DNA of 10,047 nt from Elusimicrobiota bacterium (GTDB taxonomy: Bacteria; Elusimicrobiota; Elusimicrobia; UBA1565): positions 1-10,047 of the forward strand of contig JBDREN010000232.1 in the NCBI GenBank assembly GCA_043819795.1. Reading direction: 5' to 3'. Of this stretch, positions 2,801-10,047 are shown in pieces. Position numbers and translations under genes: made by a program. Each line of letters opens with the position of its first letter. Positions within the stretch are counted from its first letter, which is position 1. The notes beneath the pieces are model-generated. The model was not told the DNA's origin. It saw only the letters and a program-made list of their open reading frames with translations, and did no database searches.

Positions 2801-3484
2801 GTGTGCATCAAGCTGGATGCGCGGGACTTCTTGGCGGCCTATGTCGCGGCTTACATCGAGCGGGATGTTAGGGAAGTCACGCGGGTGGGGGACCTGTCCA
2901 CGTTTCGGAGGTTCTTGCAGATCTGCGCGGGTCGCTCCGGACAGATACTCAACCTATCCAGCCTGGGGGCGGACTGCGGAATCACCCATCCCACCGCGCG
3001 GCAATGGCTCTCGGTGCTTGAGGCCGGTTCTATCGTGTTCTTGCTCCAGCCGTTCCACAAGAATTTCAACAAGCGCATCGTGAAGAGCCCGAAGCTGTTC
3101 TTCCTGGATTCCGGCCTGATGTGTCATCTTCTTCGTCTGCTCAGCCCCGACGACCTCCGGGGACATCCCTTGTACGGAAGCATCTTTGAGACTTTCGTGG
3201 TGCCGGAGATCCACAAGGCCTTCGCCCATCTCGGCGAGGCACCGCCGTTGTCCTATTGGCGCGACAGGACAGGTCACGAGATCGATCTGCTCGTCGAAAG
3301 CGGACGTTTCTTGACCGCCGTCGAGATCAAATCCGCCAAGACGATATCTTCCGACTTCTTCAAGCAGTTGCGCTATTTTACCGGCCTGAAAGGGGTCTCG
3401 GGAAATTCCGTTCTAGTGTATGGGGGGGAGGAGGCCGTCCGACGCGAGGGCATTCGGATCAGGACATGGCACCAGGTTTCATAG
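2801..3484 (+). pseudogene. 5'-truncated AAA_14/DUF4143-family ATPase; only the DUF4143 and C-terminal nuclease-like half is present
   Basis: Motifs YIERDV, GQILNLSSLG, KSPKLFFLDSG, GSIFETFV, YWRDxxGxEIDL and AVEIKS. No Walker A/B is present, and in-frame stops TGA TAG at 2768-2773 close the frame just upstream. Family members are normally about 400 aa. Confidence 0.8.
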
Positions 3485-4056
3485 GCTTTGTCGCATGGCT
3501 CGCAACGGAGCAGTGATCAGATCCTCTGCCCCAGATGATCACGTCACGAGCTGACTTCTCGGCATTCCGAGCCTGGCCATCGTGTTGAGTATCCAGCCGA
3601 TACGCATCTCCACTTGCAGGTGGGCGCGATGATGACTTTTGTCTGCCGCTCCGGGCGGTGCTGGTAGAGCGCTTGGTGGACGCGTTCCTTATCATGCGCG
3701 CCGTCGGCGCAGGCTGAGGCCAGCGGACCATTGATCTGTCTCAACAGGGCAAGACCATATGCCATGCGAACGCTAAGGCCCGTCTCGATGGCAATCCTCG
3801 CGTAAAAACGTTGCCCGCCGGGTTGCCGACTGACCGGCGCCCGCCAGGCGTTCAACGCCGCATCAGCGATTCAGAAGGTCATGTCGCCACGCCGACGTAG
3901 ACCTTCCTCATGCTCCGGCCAGTTACTCATCCGATAGGGCTTCTTCGTGTATTCATACTGGGTCCGCTTGGGGTGATTCATGGCGAGAAACCCCAGCTAA
4001 TATTCCAACACCCGACCTGCGTGGGGTAGCGGATCGAGGAGTCATGCGCCAATGCC
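3484..4056 (-). mobile_element. Internally deleted, non-autonomous IS5-family (IS903 group) element, 573 bp
   Basis: Terminal inverted repeats GGCTTTGTCGCATGGCTC (3484-3501) and, on the minus strand, GGCATTGGCGCATGACTC (4056-4039) match at 15/18 and resemble the IS903 end GGCTTTGTTG. They enclose a transposase relic. No target-site duplication was found. Confidence 0.85.
3539..3981 (-). pseudogene. IS903-group transposase relic with a nonsense codon and two internal deletions
   Basis: From ATG 3981: MNHPKRTQYEYTKKPYRMSNWPEHEEGLRRRGDMTF*IADAALNAWRAPVSRQPGGQRFYARIAIETGLSVRMAYGLALLRQ|INGPLASACADGAHDKERVHQAL...VIIAP, then in another frame QVEMRIGWILNTMARLGMPRSQLVT* (stop 3541-3539). These match the N-terminal NW..Y...L..RG...W and GGQ..Y...AIE blocks, the ADGAYD block and the C-terminal LN.M..LG.P block of IS903-group transposases. 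Confidence 0.88.
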
Positions 4057-4247: not shown

Positions 4248-5360
4248 ATGCGCACTTTATTGGCGGGCGCGAAACGCATTGTCATTAAGGCGGGAACGAG
4301 CATGCTCGCCGCTCCGCAGGGGTGGATTTCCGAAACGCAGCTCCAAGGTCTCGGCCGCCAAGTGACGCGTATCATCCATGGGAAAAAGCAGGTGGTGCTC
4401 GTCAGCTCCGGTGCCATCGCCTTCGGCATGCAGTCCCGAGGGATAAAGAAACGTCCCCGCATCATGGCGGCCCTGCAGGCGTGCGCCGCGATCGGACAAG
4501 GGAAGCTCATGCATGCCTATGAGGAGTTTTTTTCCATGAACGGGATCGGGACCGCGCAGCTCCTCTTGACGCGGGATGGACTCGAGGACCGGCGGCGGTT
4601 CTTGGCCGCGCGCCGGACCTTCGAAGAGCTGCTGGCGATGGGGGTCCTGCCGATCGTCAATGAAAACGATACCGTCGCCACCGAGGAGATCGCGTTCGGG
4701 GATAATGATATTCTGTCGGTCCATGCGGCCCATTTGGTCCATGCAGACTGTTTGATTCTCCTTTCGGATGTCGACGGATTTTTTCTAAAGGACGGTTCTC
4801 GCATCCGCGAGGTAAGCTCCGAGCAGGATATCGACCGAGAATTGGTCAAACACCTGAAGGATGTCCCCAAGGAGAGGACGGTCGGGGGCATGAAGGCGAA
4901 GCTCGAGGCGGCCCGTGTCGCCATGCGCCTGGGGGTCCCCTTGATCATGGTGAATGGCCACGAACCCGACATGATCGCGAGGGTCCTGGCGGGCGAGGAT
5001 GTCGGGACGTTTTTTTGCGCGGGAAAGGGGAGGTCGAACGCCCGGAAGAAATGGATCGCGTTTTCAGCGGCTCGGAAAGGGACCCTCTGGGTGGATAAGG
5101 GGGCCTATCGGGCCCTGGTGGCCGAAAAACGGAGCCTCCTGCCCAGCGGGGTGGTTCGCTGGGCAGGACCGTTCAAGAAAGGAGATGTGGTGGAGCTTGC
5201 CACGGCCGCTGACCGAGTGTTCGGACGTGGAGTGATTACGTGCTCCGCCGATGAGATGGCGCGCATGGCCGGAAAGAAGACCTCCGAAGCGGCGGCCCTT
5301 CTCGGGTATGCCCATCGCGGCGAGATCATTCACCGCAATGACCTTGTCTTATGGGGGTAG
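4248..5360 (+). CDS. proB: Glutamate 5-kinase with C-terminal PUA domain
   Basis: IVIKAGTS, VLVSSGAI, QACAAIGQ, PIVNENDTV, FGDNDILS, LSDVDG, GGMKAKLEAA and the PUA region (VDKGA...SLLPSGV...IIHRNDLV). Confidence 0.97.
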   Translation: MRTLLAGAKRIVIKAGTSMLAAPQGWISETQLQGLGRQVTRIIHGKKQVVLVSSGAIAFGMQSRGIKKRPRIMAALQACAAIGQGKLMHAYEEFFSMNGIGTAQLLLTRDGLEDRRRFLAARRTFEELLAMGVLPIVNENDTVATEEIAFGDNDILSVHAAHLVHADCLILLSDVDGFFLKDGSRIREVSSEQDIDRELVKHLKDVPKERTVGGMKAKLEAARVAMRLGVPLIMVNGHEPDMIARVLAGEDVGTFFCAGKGRSNARKKWIAFSAARKGTLWVDKGAYRALVAEKRSLLPSGVVRWAGPFKKGDVVELATAADRVFGRGVITCSADEMARMAGKKTSEAAALLGYAHRGEIIHRNDLVLWG

Positions 5361-5361
5361 G

Positions 5362-6630
5362 ATGAGCCGATCGCCTTCTTGGAAAAAGGAACTTGCCTCC
5401 ACGCTAGCCAAGCTCAAGCCGGCTGCGTGGGCGAGTGCCAGGCTGTCATCCGAAGTCAAGCGCGCGGTACTTTATGAAATAGCCGGCCAGATGGTGGCTT
5501 CTCGGGGTTCGATCCTTCGCGAGAATCAAAAAGATCTGCGTCGGGGGACACAGGCCGACCTTTCGGCAGCCCTGCTCGATCGGCTGACCTTGACCCCCGA
5601 GCGGATCGGGGTCATGGCCGAGGGGGTCCGTGCGGTGGCGGACCTCCCGGACCCGGTGGGGCGTACGCTCGCCGGCTGGCAAAGGCCCAATGGCCTTTTG
5701 ATTTCCAAAGTGAGCGTTCCGATCGGCGTGATCTTGATCATTTACGAATCCAGGCCCAACGTGACGGTCGAATGTGCCGCCCTGTGCTTGAAGAGCGGCA
5801 ACACGGTCCTTTTGCGGGGCGGCCGCGAGGCGTTTCGCTCCAACCGCGTGTTGGCTGCCCTCTTTCAGCGCGTGCTTGATCGGCACAAACTGCCCAAGGC
5901 CTGCGTTAGTTTCGTGAAGACGACCGAATACGCGGCCGTCGATCATCTCCTTCATCAAGATCAAGATATTCATCTTGTGATTCCCCGGGGGGGGGAGGCC
6001 TTGATCCGAAAGGTCGTCAAGGCGTCCAGGATCCCCGTGATCAAGCATTATCAAGGCATTTGTCATGTGTATGTGGACCGGGATGCGAATCTCGAGAAGG
6101 CTGTCTCCATCGCCTTGAATGCCAAGATGCAGCGTCCGGGCGTCTGCAATGCCATGGAAACCTTGCTGGTCCATGAGGCCGTGGCGCCGCGTTTCCTTCC
6201 GGATATGGGGACACGATTGAAAGAGAGTCATTGTGAGATCCGTGCTGACCGGCGCGCGCGCGGGTGGCTCGCCGGGGCCAAGGCTGCCCGGCCTTCGGAT
6301 TTCGGGCGCGAATTCTTGGGGCCCATCTTGGCCGTGAAGGTGGTGGCGAGTTTGCGGGAGGCCGTGGAGCATATTGCCCGCTACGGTTCCGCCCATACCG
6401 ATGCGATCGTGACGGAAAACCCCGAGGCGGCCGCGATCTTCAAGCGGGAGGTGGATTCCTCCTCGGTCATGGTCAATGCCTCCACGCGTTTTTCAGACGG
6501 GTTTCAATATGGGTTCGGCGCTGAGATCGGGATTTCGACGGATAAGATCCATGCCCGAGGCCCTATGGGGCTCGAGGGGTTGACCTCGTATAAATATATC
6601 GTGGAAGGGGACGGACACATCCGAACCTGA
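5362..6630 (+). CDS. proA: Gamma-glutamyl phosphate reductase (glutamate-5-semialdehyde dehydrogenase)
   Basis: LLDRL, IIYESRPNVT, IPRGGEAL, GICHVYVD, CNAMETLLV, VNASTRFSDG, GAEIGISTDKIHARGPMGL. The start is most likely ATG 5362, just after the proB TAG, rather than 5251. Confidence 0.97.
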   Translation: MSRSPSWKKELASTLAKLKPAAWASARLSSEVKRAVLYEIAGQMVASRGSILRENQKDLRRGTQADLSAALLDRLTLTPERIGVMAEGVRAVADLPDPVGRTLAGWQRPNGLLISKVSVPIGVILIIYESRPNVTVECAALCLKSGNTVLLRGGREAFRSNRVLAALFQRVLDRHKLPKACVSFVKTTEYAAVDHLLHQDQDIHLVIPRGGEALIRKVVKASRIPVIKHYQGICHVYVDRDANLEKAVSIALNAKMQRPGVCNAMETLLVHEAVAPRFLPDMGTRLKESHCEIRADRRARGWLAGAKAARPSDFGREFLGPILAVKVVASLREAVEHIARYGSAHTDAIVTENPEAAAIFKREVDSSSVMVNASTRFSDGFQYGFGAEIGISTDKIHARGPMGLEGLTSYKYIVEGDGHIRT

Positions 6631-6645
6631 CCCAAGAAGGATAAG

Positions 6646-6753
6646 ATGAGAACGGGACTCTCGGGGGGAGCCTTCGATCCCGTTCCTGCGGGGCATTTGA
6701 GATCGGCGCGCCAAGCCGTTGAGGTCCGGCGGCGATCGGACACTTTGACCTGA
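6646..6753 (+). pseudogene. nadD: Degenerate N-terminal stub of nicotinate-nucleotide adenylyltransferase
   Basis: AAGAAGGA RBS, then MRTGLSGGAFDPVPAGHLRSARQAVEVRRRSDTLT*, resembling NadD MRIGxFGGxFDPxHxGHL with the first His replaced by Pro. proB-proA-nadD is a common gene order. Confidence 0.75.
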
Positions 6754-6836
6754 GAAATCGTTGACGGGCTCGGGCCGTGCCTGGTTCGTCTACCTAGGCC
6801 GAGAGTCGCAATCAGTCCCCCTCGACGGGCCCGGCG

Positions 6837-8237
6837 CTATGCCCGGACCACGCGCCAGAGGCCGGCCGAGCGCGCGCGGGGGTTGCCGCGCACCTCCTCG
6901 GGAGACGGCTTGAGCGGAGCCCCGGGCGGCGAGCGCCAGAGCCCCTTGGCCGCCTGCGCGGCCAGCGCGCCTTGAACGAGCGCCTCTTCGCCCGAGTGGA
7001 ACGTCAGGAAGACGGCGCGGCCGCCGGATCGCACCAGGCCGGGCAGGTCCCGGAGCAGTCGCTCCAGGGCCTCATGCTCGGAGTTGACCACGATCCTCAG
7101 CGCCTGGAACGCGCGCGCGGCCGGGTGGGGGGAGAACGCGTCCTTCTTCACCGCCCGCCCCGCTCCGAGGTCCTTCGCGAGGGCCACGGCCGCGGCCAGC
7201 TCGCGCGTGGTCTTGGGCGAGCGCCCCCGGGCGGAGAGACCCGCGAGCGCGGCCGCGACCTTTCTCGCGTCGGGCTCGCCGCCGAATCGGGCCAGAGTCC
7301 GGGCGAGCTCCGCCTCGGAGGCGCCCGCGAGCCAGTCGGCGGCGGTCCGGCCCCGCGAACGGTCCATGCGCATGTCTAGGGGCCCGTCCGCCTTGAACGA
7401 CATCCCGCGCTCGGGCCGGTCGAGCTGGGTGGATGAGACCCCCAGGTCCGCCAGAAGCGCGTCCACCCCGCCAAGGCCGAGGGCGCGGAGCACCCGCGCG
7501 GCGCCCGCGTAGTTGCTTTGCCGGGCCACGATGGCCGCGCCCGCCTCGCGAAGCCGCTTCTCGGCGCGCGCGAGCTCCTCGCCGTCGAGGTCGATCCCGA
7601 TGACGCGCCCGGCCGGCCCCGCGCGGCGCGCGAGTTCCTCCGCGTGGCCGCCCGCGCCGAGCGTGCAGTCGAGGACCGTCGCCCCCGCGAGGGGCGCCAG
7701 GGCCTCGAGCACTTCTCCCAGCATCACCGGCAGATGCGTTCCCGCCGGGGTGGAGCCGCGCTCCTTGGCTTTGGCCACGGCGAGCGGGTCCCCGGCGAGC
7801 TCCTTGTACTTCTCCCCGAACGTCCGGGGGTGCGTGCCCCGGTAGCGCTTGCGCCTCCGGTAGGCCGCGACCGTTTGAGCGATCGGGATATCGGCCGGGG
7901 TCAGGTCGTACTCGATCAGGCGCCGCGCCTCGACCCAGGCGAGCCGGTCGTGGGCGGTGGGCTTGAGCTCACCGGAGAACCTGGGAACGAGGTGCGCGAT
8001 GAGCTCCACTTCGCCGAAGTCGTAGACGTGGCGGGCGCGGGCGGCTTCGGCGCCGACCGCGGCCTCGATCCCGAACTTTTCCCTCAGCGCGCGCTCCAGA
8101 GCGGAGGCGGGGGTTTCCCCGTCCTCGACAAGGCCGCCGGGGAATTCCCATTTGCCGGCGTGGCCGCTGCCGGGGCCGCGGCGCGCGAGCAGGACCTTGC
8201 CCGAGCTGAGGATCACGGCCGCGCAGACAGGGATCAT
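6837..8237 (-). CDS. rsmH: Fusion of an N-terminal Nudix (MutT/NudG-like) domain to an RsmH (MraW)-family SAM-dependent methyltransferase
   Basis: Residues 1 to about 125: VLLARR...GKWEFPGG.VE.GE...AHDRLAWV...LTPADIPI. Residues 127-466: HLPVML, DCTLGAGGHA, GIDLD, DLGVSSTQLD.PERGMSF..DGPLDMRMD, FQALRIVVN, TFHSGE, NPRARSA. One uninterrupted frame. Confidence 0.9.
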   Translation of the reverse strand: MIPVCAAVILSSGKVLLARRGPGSGHAGKWEFPGGLVEDGETPASALERALREKFGIEAAVGAEAARARHVYDFGEVELIAHLVPRFSGELKPTAHDRLAWVEARRLIEYDLTPADIPIAQTVAAYRRRKRYRGTHPRTFGEKYKELAGDPLAVAKAKERGSTPAGTHLPVMLGEVLEALAPLAGATVLDCTLGAGGHAEELARRAGPAGRVIGIDLDGEELARAEKRLREAGAAIVARQSNYAGAARVLRALGLGGVDALLADLGVSSTQLDRPERGMSFKADGPLDMRMDRSRGRTAADWLAGASEAELARTLARFGGEPDARKVAAALAGLSARGRSPKTTRELAAAVALAKDLGAGRAVKKDAFSPHPAARAFQALRIVVNSEHEALERLLRDLPGLVRSGGRAVFLTFHSGEEALVQGALAAQAAKGLWRSPPGAPLKPSPEEVRGNPRARSAGLWRVVRA

Positions 8238-8243
8238 GTCCTG

Positions 8244-8249
8244 ATTCTA
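8244..8249 (-). promoter_or_regulatory. Possible -10 box (TAGAAT) 6 nt upstream of the fusion-gene ATG, a leaderless-mRNA geometry
   Basis: Minus strand reads TAGAAT-CAGGAC-ATG. No well-spaced SD and no clear -35. Confidence 0.4.
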
Positions 8250-8343: not shown

Positions 8344-8389
8344 TGGTTTCAGGGGCAGGATTTAAACCCGCGACCTCAAGGGCATGAGC
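8344..8389 (-). pseudogene. Degenerate 3' half of a tRNA-fMet(CAT)
   Basis: Minus strand GCTCATGCCCTTGAGGTCGCGGGTTTAAATCCTGCCCCTGAAACCA resembles initiator tRNA GCTCATAACCTTGAGGTCGCGGGTTCAAATCCTGCCCCCGCAACCA. The T-stem GCGGG/CCTGC pairs and CCA is encoded. No recognisable D-arm or 5' acceptor strand. Confidence 0.7.
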
Positions 8390-8579: not shown

Positions 8580-9764
8580 GTGAACTCCTTCGACGCGGTC
8601 ATCCTCGGAGCCGGCGGCGCGGGCCTGATGTGCGCGCTCACGGCGGCCCGGCGCGGACGCAGGGTCGTCGTCCTCGATCGCGCGGCCAAGCCCGGCGGCA
8701 AGCTCATCATCTCCGGGGGCGGGCGCTGCAACTTCACGAACCGGGACGTGTCCGCGAAGAATTTCGTCTCGGGAAACGAGCACTTCGCCAAGTCGGCCTT
8801 GTCGCGGTTCACGCCCGCGGATTTCATCGAGATGGTTGAAGCGCACGGCATTGCCTACCACGAGCGCAAGCACGGTCAATTGTTCTGCGATGGTTCCGCC
8901 CAGCAGATCATCGATCTGTTCGTGGAGGACTGCGCCAAGGCGGGCGTCGAAATCTATCTCAAGCATGAGATCCTGACGGCCGCTAGAACGGCCGGCGGCT
9001 ATCTCGTCACGACGGATCAAGGCGCCTTCGAGGCCAAATCGCTCGTGGTCGCGACCGGCGGCCTGTCCTTCCCGAAATCCGGCGCCACGCCGGCCGGCTA
9101 TGAAATCGCCGAGCAGTTCGGCCTGAAGGTCACGGCGCGCGCGCCCGCGCTTGACGGCTTCGTCTTCAGCGACGCGGACCGCAAACGCCTCGAGGGCTTC
9201 TCCGGCATCGCGCTCGAAGCGGCGATGACCACCAACGCCGTCGTCTTCCGCGAGGACCTGTTGTTTACGCACGCGGGCTTCAGCGGCCCGGTCGCGCTCC
9301 AGGCGTCTTTGCACTGGAACGCCGGCGATGAGGTGAGGGTCGACTTCATTCCCGCTCTGTCGCGCGAGGAGCTGATGGAGTGGTTCTCGTCGCGCAAGGG
9401 GAACAAGCTCGAGATCAAGAACCAAATGGCCGCGCTCGTGCCCAAACGCCTGGCCGCGCGTTTCTGCGATCTCTATCTGCCCGAGACGCTCGACATGGGA
9501 AACTTTCCAAAGAAAGACCTCGCCGCGTTCTGCGAGAGGCTCCAGGACTGGCGGTTCGTTCCGGCGGGGACGGTCGGCTACGGGAAAGCGGAAGTCACGC
9601 GCGGTGGAGTCGACACTTCCGAATTATCCTCGAAGACCATGGAAGCCAGGAAAGCCTCCGGCCTCTATTTCATCGGCGAGGTCGTCGACGTGACGGGATG
9701 GCTCGGCGGCTTCAACTACCAGTGGGCCTGGGCTTCCGGTCGCGTCGCCGGCGAATCCCTCTGA
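8580..9764 (+). CDS. yhiN: HI0933/YhiN (BaiN-like) family FAD-dependent oxidoreductase
   Basis: GAGGAGLMCA, GGKLIISGGGRCNFTN, VVATGGLSFP, LLFTHAGFSGP, AEVTRGGVD, SSKTME, GLYFIGEVVDVTGWLGGFNYQWAWASG. Confidence 0.95.
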   Translation: MNSFDAVILGAGGAGLMCALTAARRGRRVVVLDRAAKPGGKLIISGGGRCNFTNRDVSAKNFVSGNEHFAKSALSRFTPADFIEMVEAHGIAYHERKHGQLFCDGSAQQIIDLFVEDCAKAGVEIYLKHEILTAARTAGGYLVTTDQGAFEAKSLVVATGGLSFPKSGATPAGYEIAEQFGLKVTARAPALDGFVFSDADRKRLEGFSGIALEAAMTTNAVVFREDLLFTHAGFSGPVALQASLHWNAGDEVRVDFIPALSREELMEWFSSRKGNKLEIKNQMAALVPKRLAARFCDLYLPETLDMGNFPKKDLAAFCERLQDWRFVPAGTVGYGKAEVTRGGVDTSELSSKTMEARKASGLYFIGEVVDVTGWLGGFNYQWAWASGRVAGESL

Positions 9765-9907
9765 GCGTCGGGCTTGACATGTTTGGGCCACCTTGCCCCC
9801 AATGCATCGCCTATTAGCTGGGGCGCGGAGGCGGCGTTTCTCGTGCCAGAGCGGTCAACTAATTCTGACAAAAATATAAAGTGTCGGCCGCATAAGCTCT
9901 TTTTTAT

Positions 9908-10047
9908 GGATCTTCTCGGAATAGAGTGGGTCCCGTCGAGAAAATGGGGTTCAAAGCCGGTCAACTGATTTCTTCTCCAGATTGCCGCACTTGCGTAGAA
10001 TCTTGAGCCGGAAGTAGGTCCAGTCATGGAAGCCGTAGGCGTTCTTT
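9908..10047 (-). mobile_element. Right end of an ISL3-family insertion sequence, continuing beyond the window
   Basis: Terminal sequence GGATCTTCTCGGAATAGAGTGGG at 9908 resembles ISL3 GGnTCTTC ends. It is flanked by AT-rich TTTTTTAT (9900-9907, candidate 8-bp target duplication) and lies just downstream of the transposase stop. Confidence 0.8.
9951..10046 (-). CDS. ISL3-family transposase, C-terminal 31 aa (partial)
   Basis: Hand translation KNAYGFHDWTYFRLKILRKCGNLEKKSVDRL* matches the ISL3 C-terminal motif KRxAYGFrxxxYFrLKI. It is not in the ORF track. Confidence 0.88.
   Translation of the reverse strand, partial: KNAYGFHDWTYFRLKILRKCGNLEKKSVDRL

Follow-up and report, generated by a model that had tools for sequence, protein, structure and literature searches.

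What is a Nudix domain doing at the front of an extra RsmH-type methyltransferase? The question is raised by a 466-amino-acid reading frame from an Elusimicrobiota bacterium. The stretch of DNA that we analyzed, which we will call the window, is 10,047 nucleotides of contig JBDREN010000232.1 (assembly GCA_043819795.1). The function of the fused protein is predicted only, and its interest lies in what the fusion, and a counterpart in Verrucomicrobia, suggest about the RsmH2 family to which the methyltransferase belongs.

A Nudix domain joined to a methyltransferase

The initial annotation described one open reading frame in which a Nudix domain runs straight into an RsmH without a stop, placed the boundary at positions 7863/7862 (residues 125/126), pointed to a basic extension at the N terminus of the methyltransferase, and saw no mraZ or ftsL beside it. 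All of this holds. The frame is free of stops from 8237 to 6837 on the reverse strand (Table 1). Pfam finds NUDIX (residues 5–114), NUDIX_4 (6–119), and Methyltransf_5 (PF01795; 167–461), and the score with the RsmH model TIGR00006 is 216 bits, where the cut-off is 154. The 41 residues of the extension include 12 lysines or arginines and 4 aspartates or glutamates. No mraZ, ftsL, or ftsI lies within the window; beside the fused gene are proB-proA and a gene of the HI0933 family.

Table 1. Features at and beside the fused gene (positions in the window; residues of the fused protein).
Feature	Positions	Strand	Basis
Fused gene, 466 aa: NudG-type Nudix domain, basic extension, RsmH2 methyltransferase	6837..8237	(-)	ORF, Pfam/NCBIfam, model
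Nudix domain, aa 1–125; nearest to E. coli NudG/Orf135 (2RRK); pocket residues R19, H96, and D116 retained	7863..8237	(-)	
Nudix box, aa 35–57; degenerate (R36L, E50A, E54K, L55F); predicted to be catalytically inactive	8067..8135	(-)	
Basic N-terminal extension specific to RsmH2, aa 126–166; not in canonical RsmH; pLDDT of blocks 49–68	7740..7862	(-)	
RsmH/MraW methyltransferase core, aa 167–466	6840..7739	(-)	
-10-type box TAGAAT, 6 nt ahead of the start codon of the fused gene	8244..8249	(-)	
HI0933/PF03486 flavoprotein, divergent neighbor; RdsA, an rRNA dihydrouridine synthase, is one member of this family, whose functions are not uniform; any link to the fusion is uncertain	8580..9764	(+)	

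The AlphaFold model of the fused protein (from a 78-sequence alignment; mean pLDDT 84.9, pTM 0.64) has two confident domains with a low-confidence linker between them. Foldseek matches both folds: RsmH and METTL15 come first, followed by NudG, BdRppH, and MutT2, and the RsmH fold matches 1WG8 with E = 8e-26.

The -10-type box is found in 13 of 17 fused genes, and the transcript is likely leaderless. Among host genes of at least 200 amino acids, such boxes peak at 6 nt ahead of the start codon (43 cases, versus about 10 at other distances). This suggests that leaderless mRNAs are common in the host, so that the start of the fused gene is nothing special.

The methyltransferase belongs to a second RsmH subfamily

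We will call the second RsmH subfamily RsmH2, presumably in keeping with HAMAP's "RsmH 2". The initial annotation had assigned the methyltransferase to this extension-bearing subfamily, as a paralog from outside the dcw cluster, and the grouping, the extension, and the motif all agree. The protein carries the N-terminal RRxRYxGxxP...KYKE...GxTPAG extension and the FHSG motif. It is not an orthologue of canonical RsmH: its gene is not in a dcw cluster, and it groups with the extension-bearing paralogs. The host does have a separate canonical rsmH, in a mraZ-rsmH-ftsL-ftsI-murE-murF cluster on another contig (C28; the names after rsmH were read from translations), whose product is 38% identical to the methyltransferase of the fused gene. 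Both mraZ and rsmH were recovered in all 41 genomes of the host's order.

There are 3859 proteins with a match to the extension region, and by far most RsmH2 proteins lack a Nudix domain. RsmH2 is present in 21 of 91 genomes sampled from the Verrucomicrobia class, 9 of 91 from the planctomycete phylum, and 4 of 101 from the clostridial class. A scan of viral sequences gave 4 loci, one of them RsmH2-like, and ESM Atlas gave a single weak match (0.79) to the extension. Five RsmH2 proteins (P0141, P0155, P0174, P0181, and P0195) look eukaryotic and have N-terminal leaders; one is from Mallomonas annulata. These algal proteins are possibly targeted to an organelle.

The methyltransferase core is well conserved. 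In 42 columns, conservation is 90% or more across the canonical, unfused, and fused groups. The residues of METTL15 that are reported to bind SAM (T96, H102, D119, F146, D169, S173, Q176, and E298; PMC10828496) correspond to T192, H198, D216, Y243, D264, S268, Q271, and E387, and these positions are retained. The position of METTL15 R120 is leucine in the window copy and arginine in 116 of the best 120 of 2165 matches; the changes private to the window methyltransferase are W195A, R217L, M270T, and R459G. The whole fused clade lacks basic residues that match R327 and K330 of METTL15 (the D-R-x-x-K patch). This patch is reported to face h24 (PMC10828496); with its basic residues lost, docking to the ribosome may differ. 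RsmH2 is likely a SAM-dependent cytosine-N4 methyltransferase that acts on rRNA.

The Nudix domain is NudG-like, and degenerate in this genome

The best Nudix model for the fused protein is the NudG-type NF007834, at 103.5 bits; an intact member of the family reaches 117.5 bits, and both are below the cut-off of 156. For the intact member, the best match of solved structure is NudG (2RRK, E = 8e-27). BdRppH (3EES) ranks third among the sequence matches, and the structure scores tie (E = 5.2e-14 for BdRppH and 4.9e-14 for NudG), while E. coli-type RppH models fall far under their cut-off. H96 and D116 are present together in 118 of the best 120 of 2165 matches, and none of the 120 has asparagine at position 116. 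We take H96 and the PAD-type aspartate D116 to mark a NudG-type, cytosine-preferring pocket; MutT has asparagine instead. From its similarity to NudG and MutT2, the intact domain is likely a CTP/dCTP pyrophosphatase. Hydrolysis of 5-methyl-dCTP is reported for NudG, MutT2, and DCTPP1 (PMC5158307, PMC10742078), and a table in PMC5158307 has NudG favoring 5-methyl-dCTP over CTP about 28-fold. In the portions of the literature consulted, we found no report of NudG or DCTPP1 activity on N4-methyl-(d)CTP.

The Nudix box is defined as GX5EX7REUXEEXGU (PMC5389931) and is complete in 115 of the best 120 of 2165 matches, whereas the window copy reads G-x5-E-x7-R-A-L-x-E-K-x-G, a feature that the initial annotation does not mention. 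In the assembly, the four changes in the box (Table 1) replace two conserved glutamates and a conserved basic residue; E50A and E54K are each one base away from the family codon. Positions 50 and 54 are presumably the general-base and metal-ligand sites of MutT and NudG mutagenesis. Because these glutamates are replaced, the window copy is predicted to be inactive as a hydrolase, and the clean-up activity that we propose below has likely been lost from this genome's copy. At conserved columns, the window copy departs from the family in 6 of 68 and 6 of 180 cases, where the medians are 1 and 3. Even so, we saw no general decay: in each of the three regions, the pN of the window copy is equal to that of the other members.

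Decay at other positions is seen in four other proteins among the best 120, two of which have G or Q in place of D116, and in two genomes (G037 and G040) whose Nudix domains are far decayed.

The fusion is lineage-wide

Our homologue set is the best 120 of 2165 matches, from 8000 candidates scored. All 120 have both Pfam domains, at 65–78% identity, and the 119 other 90%-clusters align over 91–100% of the length. All 17 of the entries with organism names are from Elusimicrobiota. In the host's order, 24 of 41 genomes have an RsmH2 paralog, fused in 21 and unfused in 3; among the 21, one has an internal stop, one is cut by a contig end, and one is split over two contigs. (In the fused gene of G028, an in-frame TAG lies inside the extension, at L022:2659-2661.) So junction-spanning homologues do exist in independent genomes. 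In a sample of 151 genomes from the phylum, the fusion is limited to this order, and two genomes of another Elusimicrobiota family have a distant unfused form of RsmH2.

We also searched 1.84 billion 50%-cluster representatives with a profile; of the best 150, just three bear a Nudix domain, and all three belong to this fusion family. A separate search for longer fusions with the extension gave none, but that blank carries no weight, as the known 774-amino-acid protein P0036 was missed too. The tail of P0036 has no Pfam match. Among 18 longer RsmH-family proteins, we found no fusion to a MazG-like protein or to RsmE.

The chance that the fusion is an assembly artefact or a one-off event is negligible. 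The window is a patchwork with a step in GC content (0.60 in proB/proA and 0.75 in the fused gene), and no reads were placed across the junction. Low-depth contigs are identical to the window over 6325-6547 and 6777-7101; no contig spans 7812-8651, so the Nudix domain and the junction lie outside that comparison. But the same junction is found in 119 other clusters and 20 other genomes, and we ruled out an artefact on that account.

In a tree of 122 of the 241 methyltransferase domains that we collected, the fused proteins form a single clade (support 1.0) apart from canonical RsmH. Three unfused RsmH2 genes from Elusimicrobiota are nested within this clade, so we interpret them as secondary losses of the Nudix domain. 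The domain is lost in 3 of the 24 RsmH2 genomes of the order and decayed in 3. As to the origin, a nudG-rsmH2 gene pair would have lost its stop codon in the ancestor of the order; the stand-alone NudG of a relative (G008) ends at the position of the junction, which fits such a loss.

The initial annotation did not recognize the architecture as a described one. Searches of main texts in the open full-text literature gave no description of the fusion and no functional study of RsmH2. Two RsmH/MraW paralogs are reported for planctomycetes: in Tuwongella both are seen by proteomics (PMC8567305), and in Planctopirus both are dispensable (PMC10632474); the second copies may or may not be RsmH2. This is a real, lineage-wide, and apparently undescribed architecture that is built of known parts.

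A predicted dCTPase of another fold precedes RsmH2 in some Verrucomicrobia

Outside the host's order, our RsmH2 loci are samples, from a contig scan over 1 of 64 parts and a metagenome scan likewise. Of the genes that recur beside unfused RsmH2, the commonest is MazG-like, with E = 1.5e-20 for its match to mouse DCTPP1. We sampled 91 genomes from the class to which a Prosthecobacter genome belongs; 21 of them have RsmH2, and in 9 of the 21 the MazG-like gene is immediately upstream of the unfused RsmH2 gene. Overall, 15 loci have this arrangement, and in 13 of the 15 the stop codon of the MazG-like gene overlaps a possible start codon. In the tree of 122 of the 241 domains, the DCTPP1-linked RsmH2 proteins and the fused ones belong to separate clades. 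Outside the order, only these 15 of 138 RsmH2 loci (125 with at least 400 nt upstream) have DCTPP1 upstream; another Nudix gene is adjacent in 2, and about 120 have unrelated neighbors. The planctomycete and clostridial RsmH2 loci that we examined have no DCTPP1. Because most RsmH2 loci lack a dCTPase neighbor, we count only two independent pairings of RsmH2 with a dCTPase.

In the host's order, an unlinked DCTPP1 is present in 20 of the 24 genomes with RsmH2 and in 1 of the 17 others. This co-occurrence holds after matching for size, collapsing genera, or restricting to COX1-positive or PPK2-positive genomes (with PPK2, 20 of 23 versus 1 of 9). In contrasts on the tree, DCTPP1 follows RsmH2 in 9 of 11, with 2 ties. 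All three genomes with a decayed Nudix domain, the host included, have DCTPP1. However, the unrelated control PPK2 also tracks RsmH2 (23 of 24 versus 9 of 17, p = 0.002), and in 10 of 11 contrasts the genome is larger on the side with RsmH2, so the co-occurrence is confounded with larger, gene-rich genomes. We rejected an aerobic lifestyle as its cause (COX1 is in 20 of 24 versus 15 of 17). One genome (G039) has RsmH2 and neither dCTPase was found in it. Unlinked DCTPP1 has no association with RsmH2 in the Verrucomicrobia sample (2 of 12 versus 10 of 70).

The host's DCTPP1 gene (contig C206) lies between genes for an HNH protein and a Schlafen-group-3 helicase, a trio at L259:2295-4877. Similar trios are found at L263, L266, and L277; the arrangement is recurrent and defense-like, with weak PADLOC matches only.

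An RsmE paralog accompanies RsmH2

A paralog of RsmE, which we will call RsmE2, is found besides canonical rsmE in 14 of the 24 RsmH2 genomes of the order and in none of the 17 others. Its gene adjoins rsmH2 in 9 genomes, with a gap within about 10 nt in 8. RsmE2 (for instance, L009:661-1488) has about 275 amino acids and lacks the PUA_4 match of canonical RsmE. The host itself has no RsmE2, only the canonical, dnaJ-linked rsmE. RsmE makes m3U1498 and RsmH makes m4C1402, both reported to lie in the decoding region (PMC4119055). The company of RsmE2 is our best evidence on the target of RsmH2 and, together with the RsmH core that is retained, makes rRNA the probable one. RsmH2 loci also lie near other RNA-modification families, namely pseudouridine synthase (6), PF03486 (5), and YhbY (3). 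We set aside the PF03486 neighbors (5 distinct loci, in mixed orientation) as support because that family is not isofunctional.

Two further observations concern loci of this kind. At L004 and L008, a gene for an RlmK/RlmI-like methylase is upstream. And upstream of unfused rsmH2 at L013 (about 4520-4590, reverse strand) and L014 (about 3630-3700, reverse strand), some 65 nt of non-coding sequence, which include a hairpin, are conserved between the two genomes; Rfam gave nothing on these two loci or on the window.

A proposed role, and its rivals

We tentatively propose, at a little under an even chance, that the fusion combines an extra m4C rRNA methylase with an independent enzyme that cleans up methylated cytidine triphosphates. 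RsmH2 would use SAM to methylate an rRNA cytidine at N4, with RsmE2 as a partner where it is present. Turnover and salvage of RNA would then release methylated cytidine nucleotides, a general logic that is described for other bases (PMC12887539), and the co-expressed dCTPase would hydrolyze the methylated cytidine triphosphates. Writer and cleaner would be linked through co-expression, not allosteric control, and the two domains would act independently. If so, decay of the Nudix domain would be tolerated, and most readily in genomes that also have DCTPP1, the host among them. The clean-up step is suggested by the pairing of RsmH2 with two unrelated dCTPase folds, which suggests that the RsmH2 family likely comes with a nucleotide clean-up step of its own. 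Against it, canonical RsmH makes m4C in all of these genomes without such a partner. A bolder version, which we think unlikely, is that RsmH2 makes a second N4-methylcytosine beyond that of canonical RsmH and, with the second RsmE, gives an alternative methylation of the decoding center (or of another nucleic acid); the released methylcytidine would be harmful, and a dedicated dCTPase would have been attached twice, from unrelated folds.

The fusion might instead be a passenger. Two housekeeping genes that were neighbors by chance would have been joined by the loss of one stop codon and would have kept unrelated jobs, the Nudix domain as a generic clean-up enzyme for oxidized or modified dNTPs and the methylase as a redundant rRNA methylation, with the DCTPP1 operon as a separate accident. 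We consider this somewhat unlikely, but it is the main rival. It would fit a fusion that is one well-supported clade and one family among the best 150 of the 50% clusters, a Nudix domain that is repeatedly lost or decayed, a low-confidence linker and a pTM of 0.64, and the unrelated neighbors of most other RsmH2 loci. NudG-type domains are also mobile (the PADLOC candidate model PDC-S07 matches this one at E = 5e-36), and the PPK2 control reveals an axis from gene-rich to streamlined genomes. Deleting either mraW copy of Planctopirus, the second of which may or may not be RsmH2, is reported to give no growth phenotype (PMC10632474). Against a passenger fusion stand the dCTPase, although differently folded, as the gene that most often recurs beside unfused RsmH2, the intact box in nearly all of the best 120 matches, and the rarity of NudG where the order's genomes lack RsmH2 (kept in 1 of 17). 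Another possibility, which we consider improbable, is that the cytosine methylated by RsmH2 belongs to DNA or to free nucleotides instead of rRNA, and that the dCTPase keeps methylated dCTP from being incorporated at random into DNA. Both partners are reported to prefer the deoxy compound 5-methyl-dCTP (PMC10742078, PMC5158307), MraW is described as a DNA methylase in PMC11544029 (which cites a 2019 paper), the fused clade lacks counterparts of the METTL15 residues reported to face h24, and genes for DCTPP1 and NudG lie beside HNH nucleases. This fits less well with RsmE2, the exclusive partner, being of an rRNA methylase family, with the recurrent RNA-modification neighbors, with the leaders of the algal proteins such as that of Mallomonas, and with the lack of any defense-island context seen at RsmH2 loci.

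The initial annotation inferred that methylation is coupled to sensing of a nucleotide, an oxidized base, or an RNA 5' end. Our results speak against this, because in the family the Nudix domain has a complete catalytic box and a NudG-type pocket, and is dispensable. We rate as very improbable both a Nudix domain that senses a nucleotide or RNA end and gates or targets the methyltransferase and an RppH-like enzyme that acts on the same RNA. The window copy does retain R19, H96, and D116 while catalysis is predicted to be lost, as a binding-only domain might, and BdRppH is close to the domain in sequence and ties with NudG in structure. But the family as a whole is catalytically complete, and other decayed copies lose the pocket too. 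The repeated decay and loss of the domain also argue against sensing, as do the unfused members nested in the fused clade and the thousands of RsmH2 proteins with no Nudix domain.

Other features of the window

proB-proA (4248-6753, forward strand) has a GC content of 0.60 and a GC3 of 0.71–0.74, versus 0.75 and 0.91 for the fused gene, and this stretch is likely an acquired fragment. It is followed by a 35-codon remnant whose motif we take to resemble the start of nadD; nothing else in the host matches the remnant. Host contig C227 carries part of a second proA. A 23-nt stretch just upstream of the fused gene (8354-8376, reverse strand) matches the host's tRNA-Met at 91% and is a possible remnant of an integration site; ARAGORN finds no tRNA in the window. 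The stretches at 9907-10047 and 3484-4056 are repeated at the ends of other contigs and on C80, and are likely ends or remnants of insertion sequences. At 2801-3484 (forward strand), a DUF4143-only reading frame is likely the C-terminal part of an AAA+ ATPase, a family with five paralogs in the host. On the reverse strand, a reading frame with ephrin-receptor-like cysteine repeats (2231-1251) and one with RCC1/HYR repeats that runs off the window (within 1-2231) are in different frames and overlap at about 1250-1420, and are probably one frameshifted surface protein.

Implications

RsmH2 is a large family, found in Verrucomicrobia, Planctomycetes, Clostridia, Elusimicrobiota, and some algae, and databases call it just RsmH. 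The fusion, the DCTPP1 operon, and RsmE2 together offer the first hypotheses, specific and cheap, on what RsmH2 makes and what it acts on. Through them, the question whether RNA methylation yields methylated nucleotides that need a dedicated clean-up also becomes testable in bacteria. If the fusion is a passenger, then its worth shrinks to a corrected annotation.

Comparison with known systems

The closest known enzymes to RsmH2 are RsmH/MraW, which makes m4C1402 of 16S rRNA (TIGR00006, PF01795; 3TKA, 1M6Y, 1WG8), and the mitochondrial METTL15. RsmH2 shares their fold, their SAM pocket, and the 42 conserved columns. Unlike canonical RsmH, RsmH2 lies outside the dcw cluster, is always additional to a canonical copy, and has the 41-residue basic extension and FHSG in place of FHSL. 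The fused clade has further lost the D-R-x-x-K patch and carries the Nudix domain at its N terminus.

The Nudix domain shares the pocket histidine and the PAD-type aspartate with E. coli NudG/Orf135 and mycobacterial MutT2, which are pyrophosphohydrolases of CTP and dCTP and of 5-methyl-dCTP (2RRK, 5ZRO). It differs from them in being fused to a methyltransferase and in falling below the NCBIfam cut-off for NudG, and the box of the window copy is broken. BdRppH, a MutT-like RNA pyrophosphohydrolase from Bdellovibrio (3EES), is near in sequence and fold; however, it lacks the PAD aspartate at the aligned position and stands alone. DCTPP1/RS21-C6, a MazG-like dCTP pyrophosphatase (PF12643; 6SQW), has the same predicted reaction as the Nudix domain, and its bacterial orthologue is the gene directly upstream of RsmH2 in Verrucomicrobia. 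But DCTPP1 has an unrelated, all-alpha fold and is encoded by a separate gene, outside the window. A precedent for pairing an rRNA-modification gene with a Nudix gene for modified nucleotides is the rluE-nudJ operon of E. coli, where the two are reported to be co-transcribed (PMC3384335); there, the modifying enzyme and the Nudix subfamily are different ones, and the two proteins are not fused.
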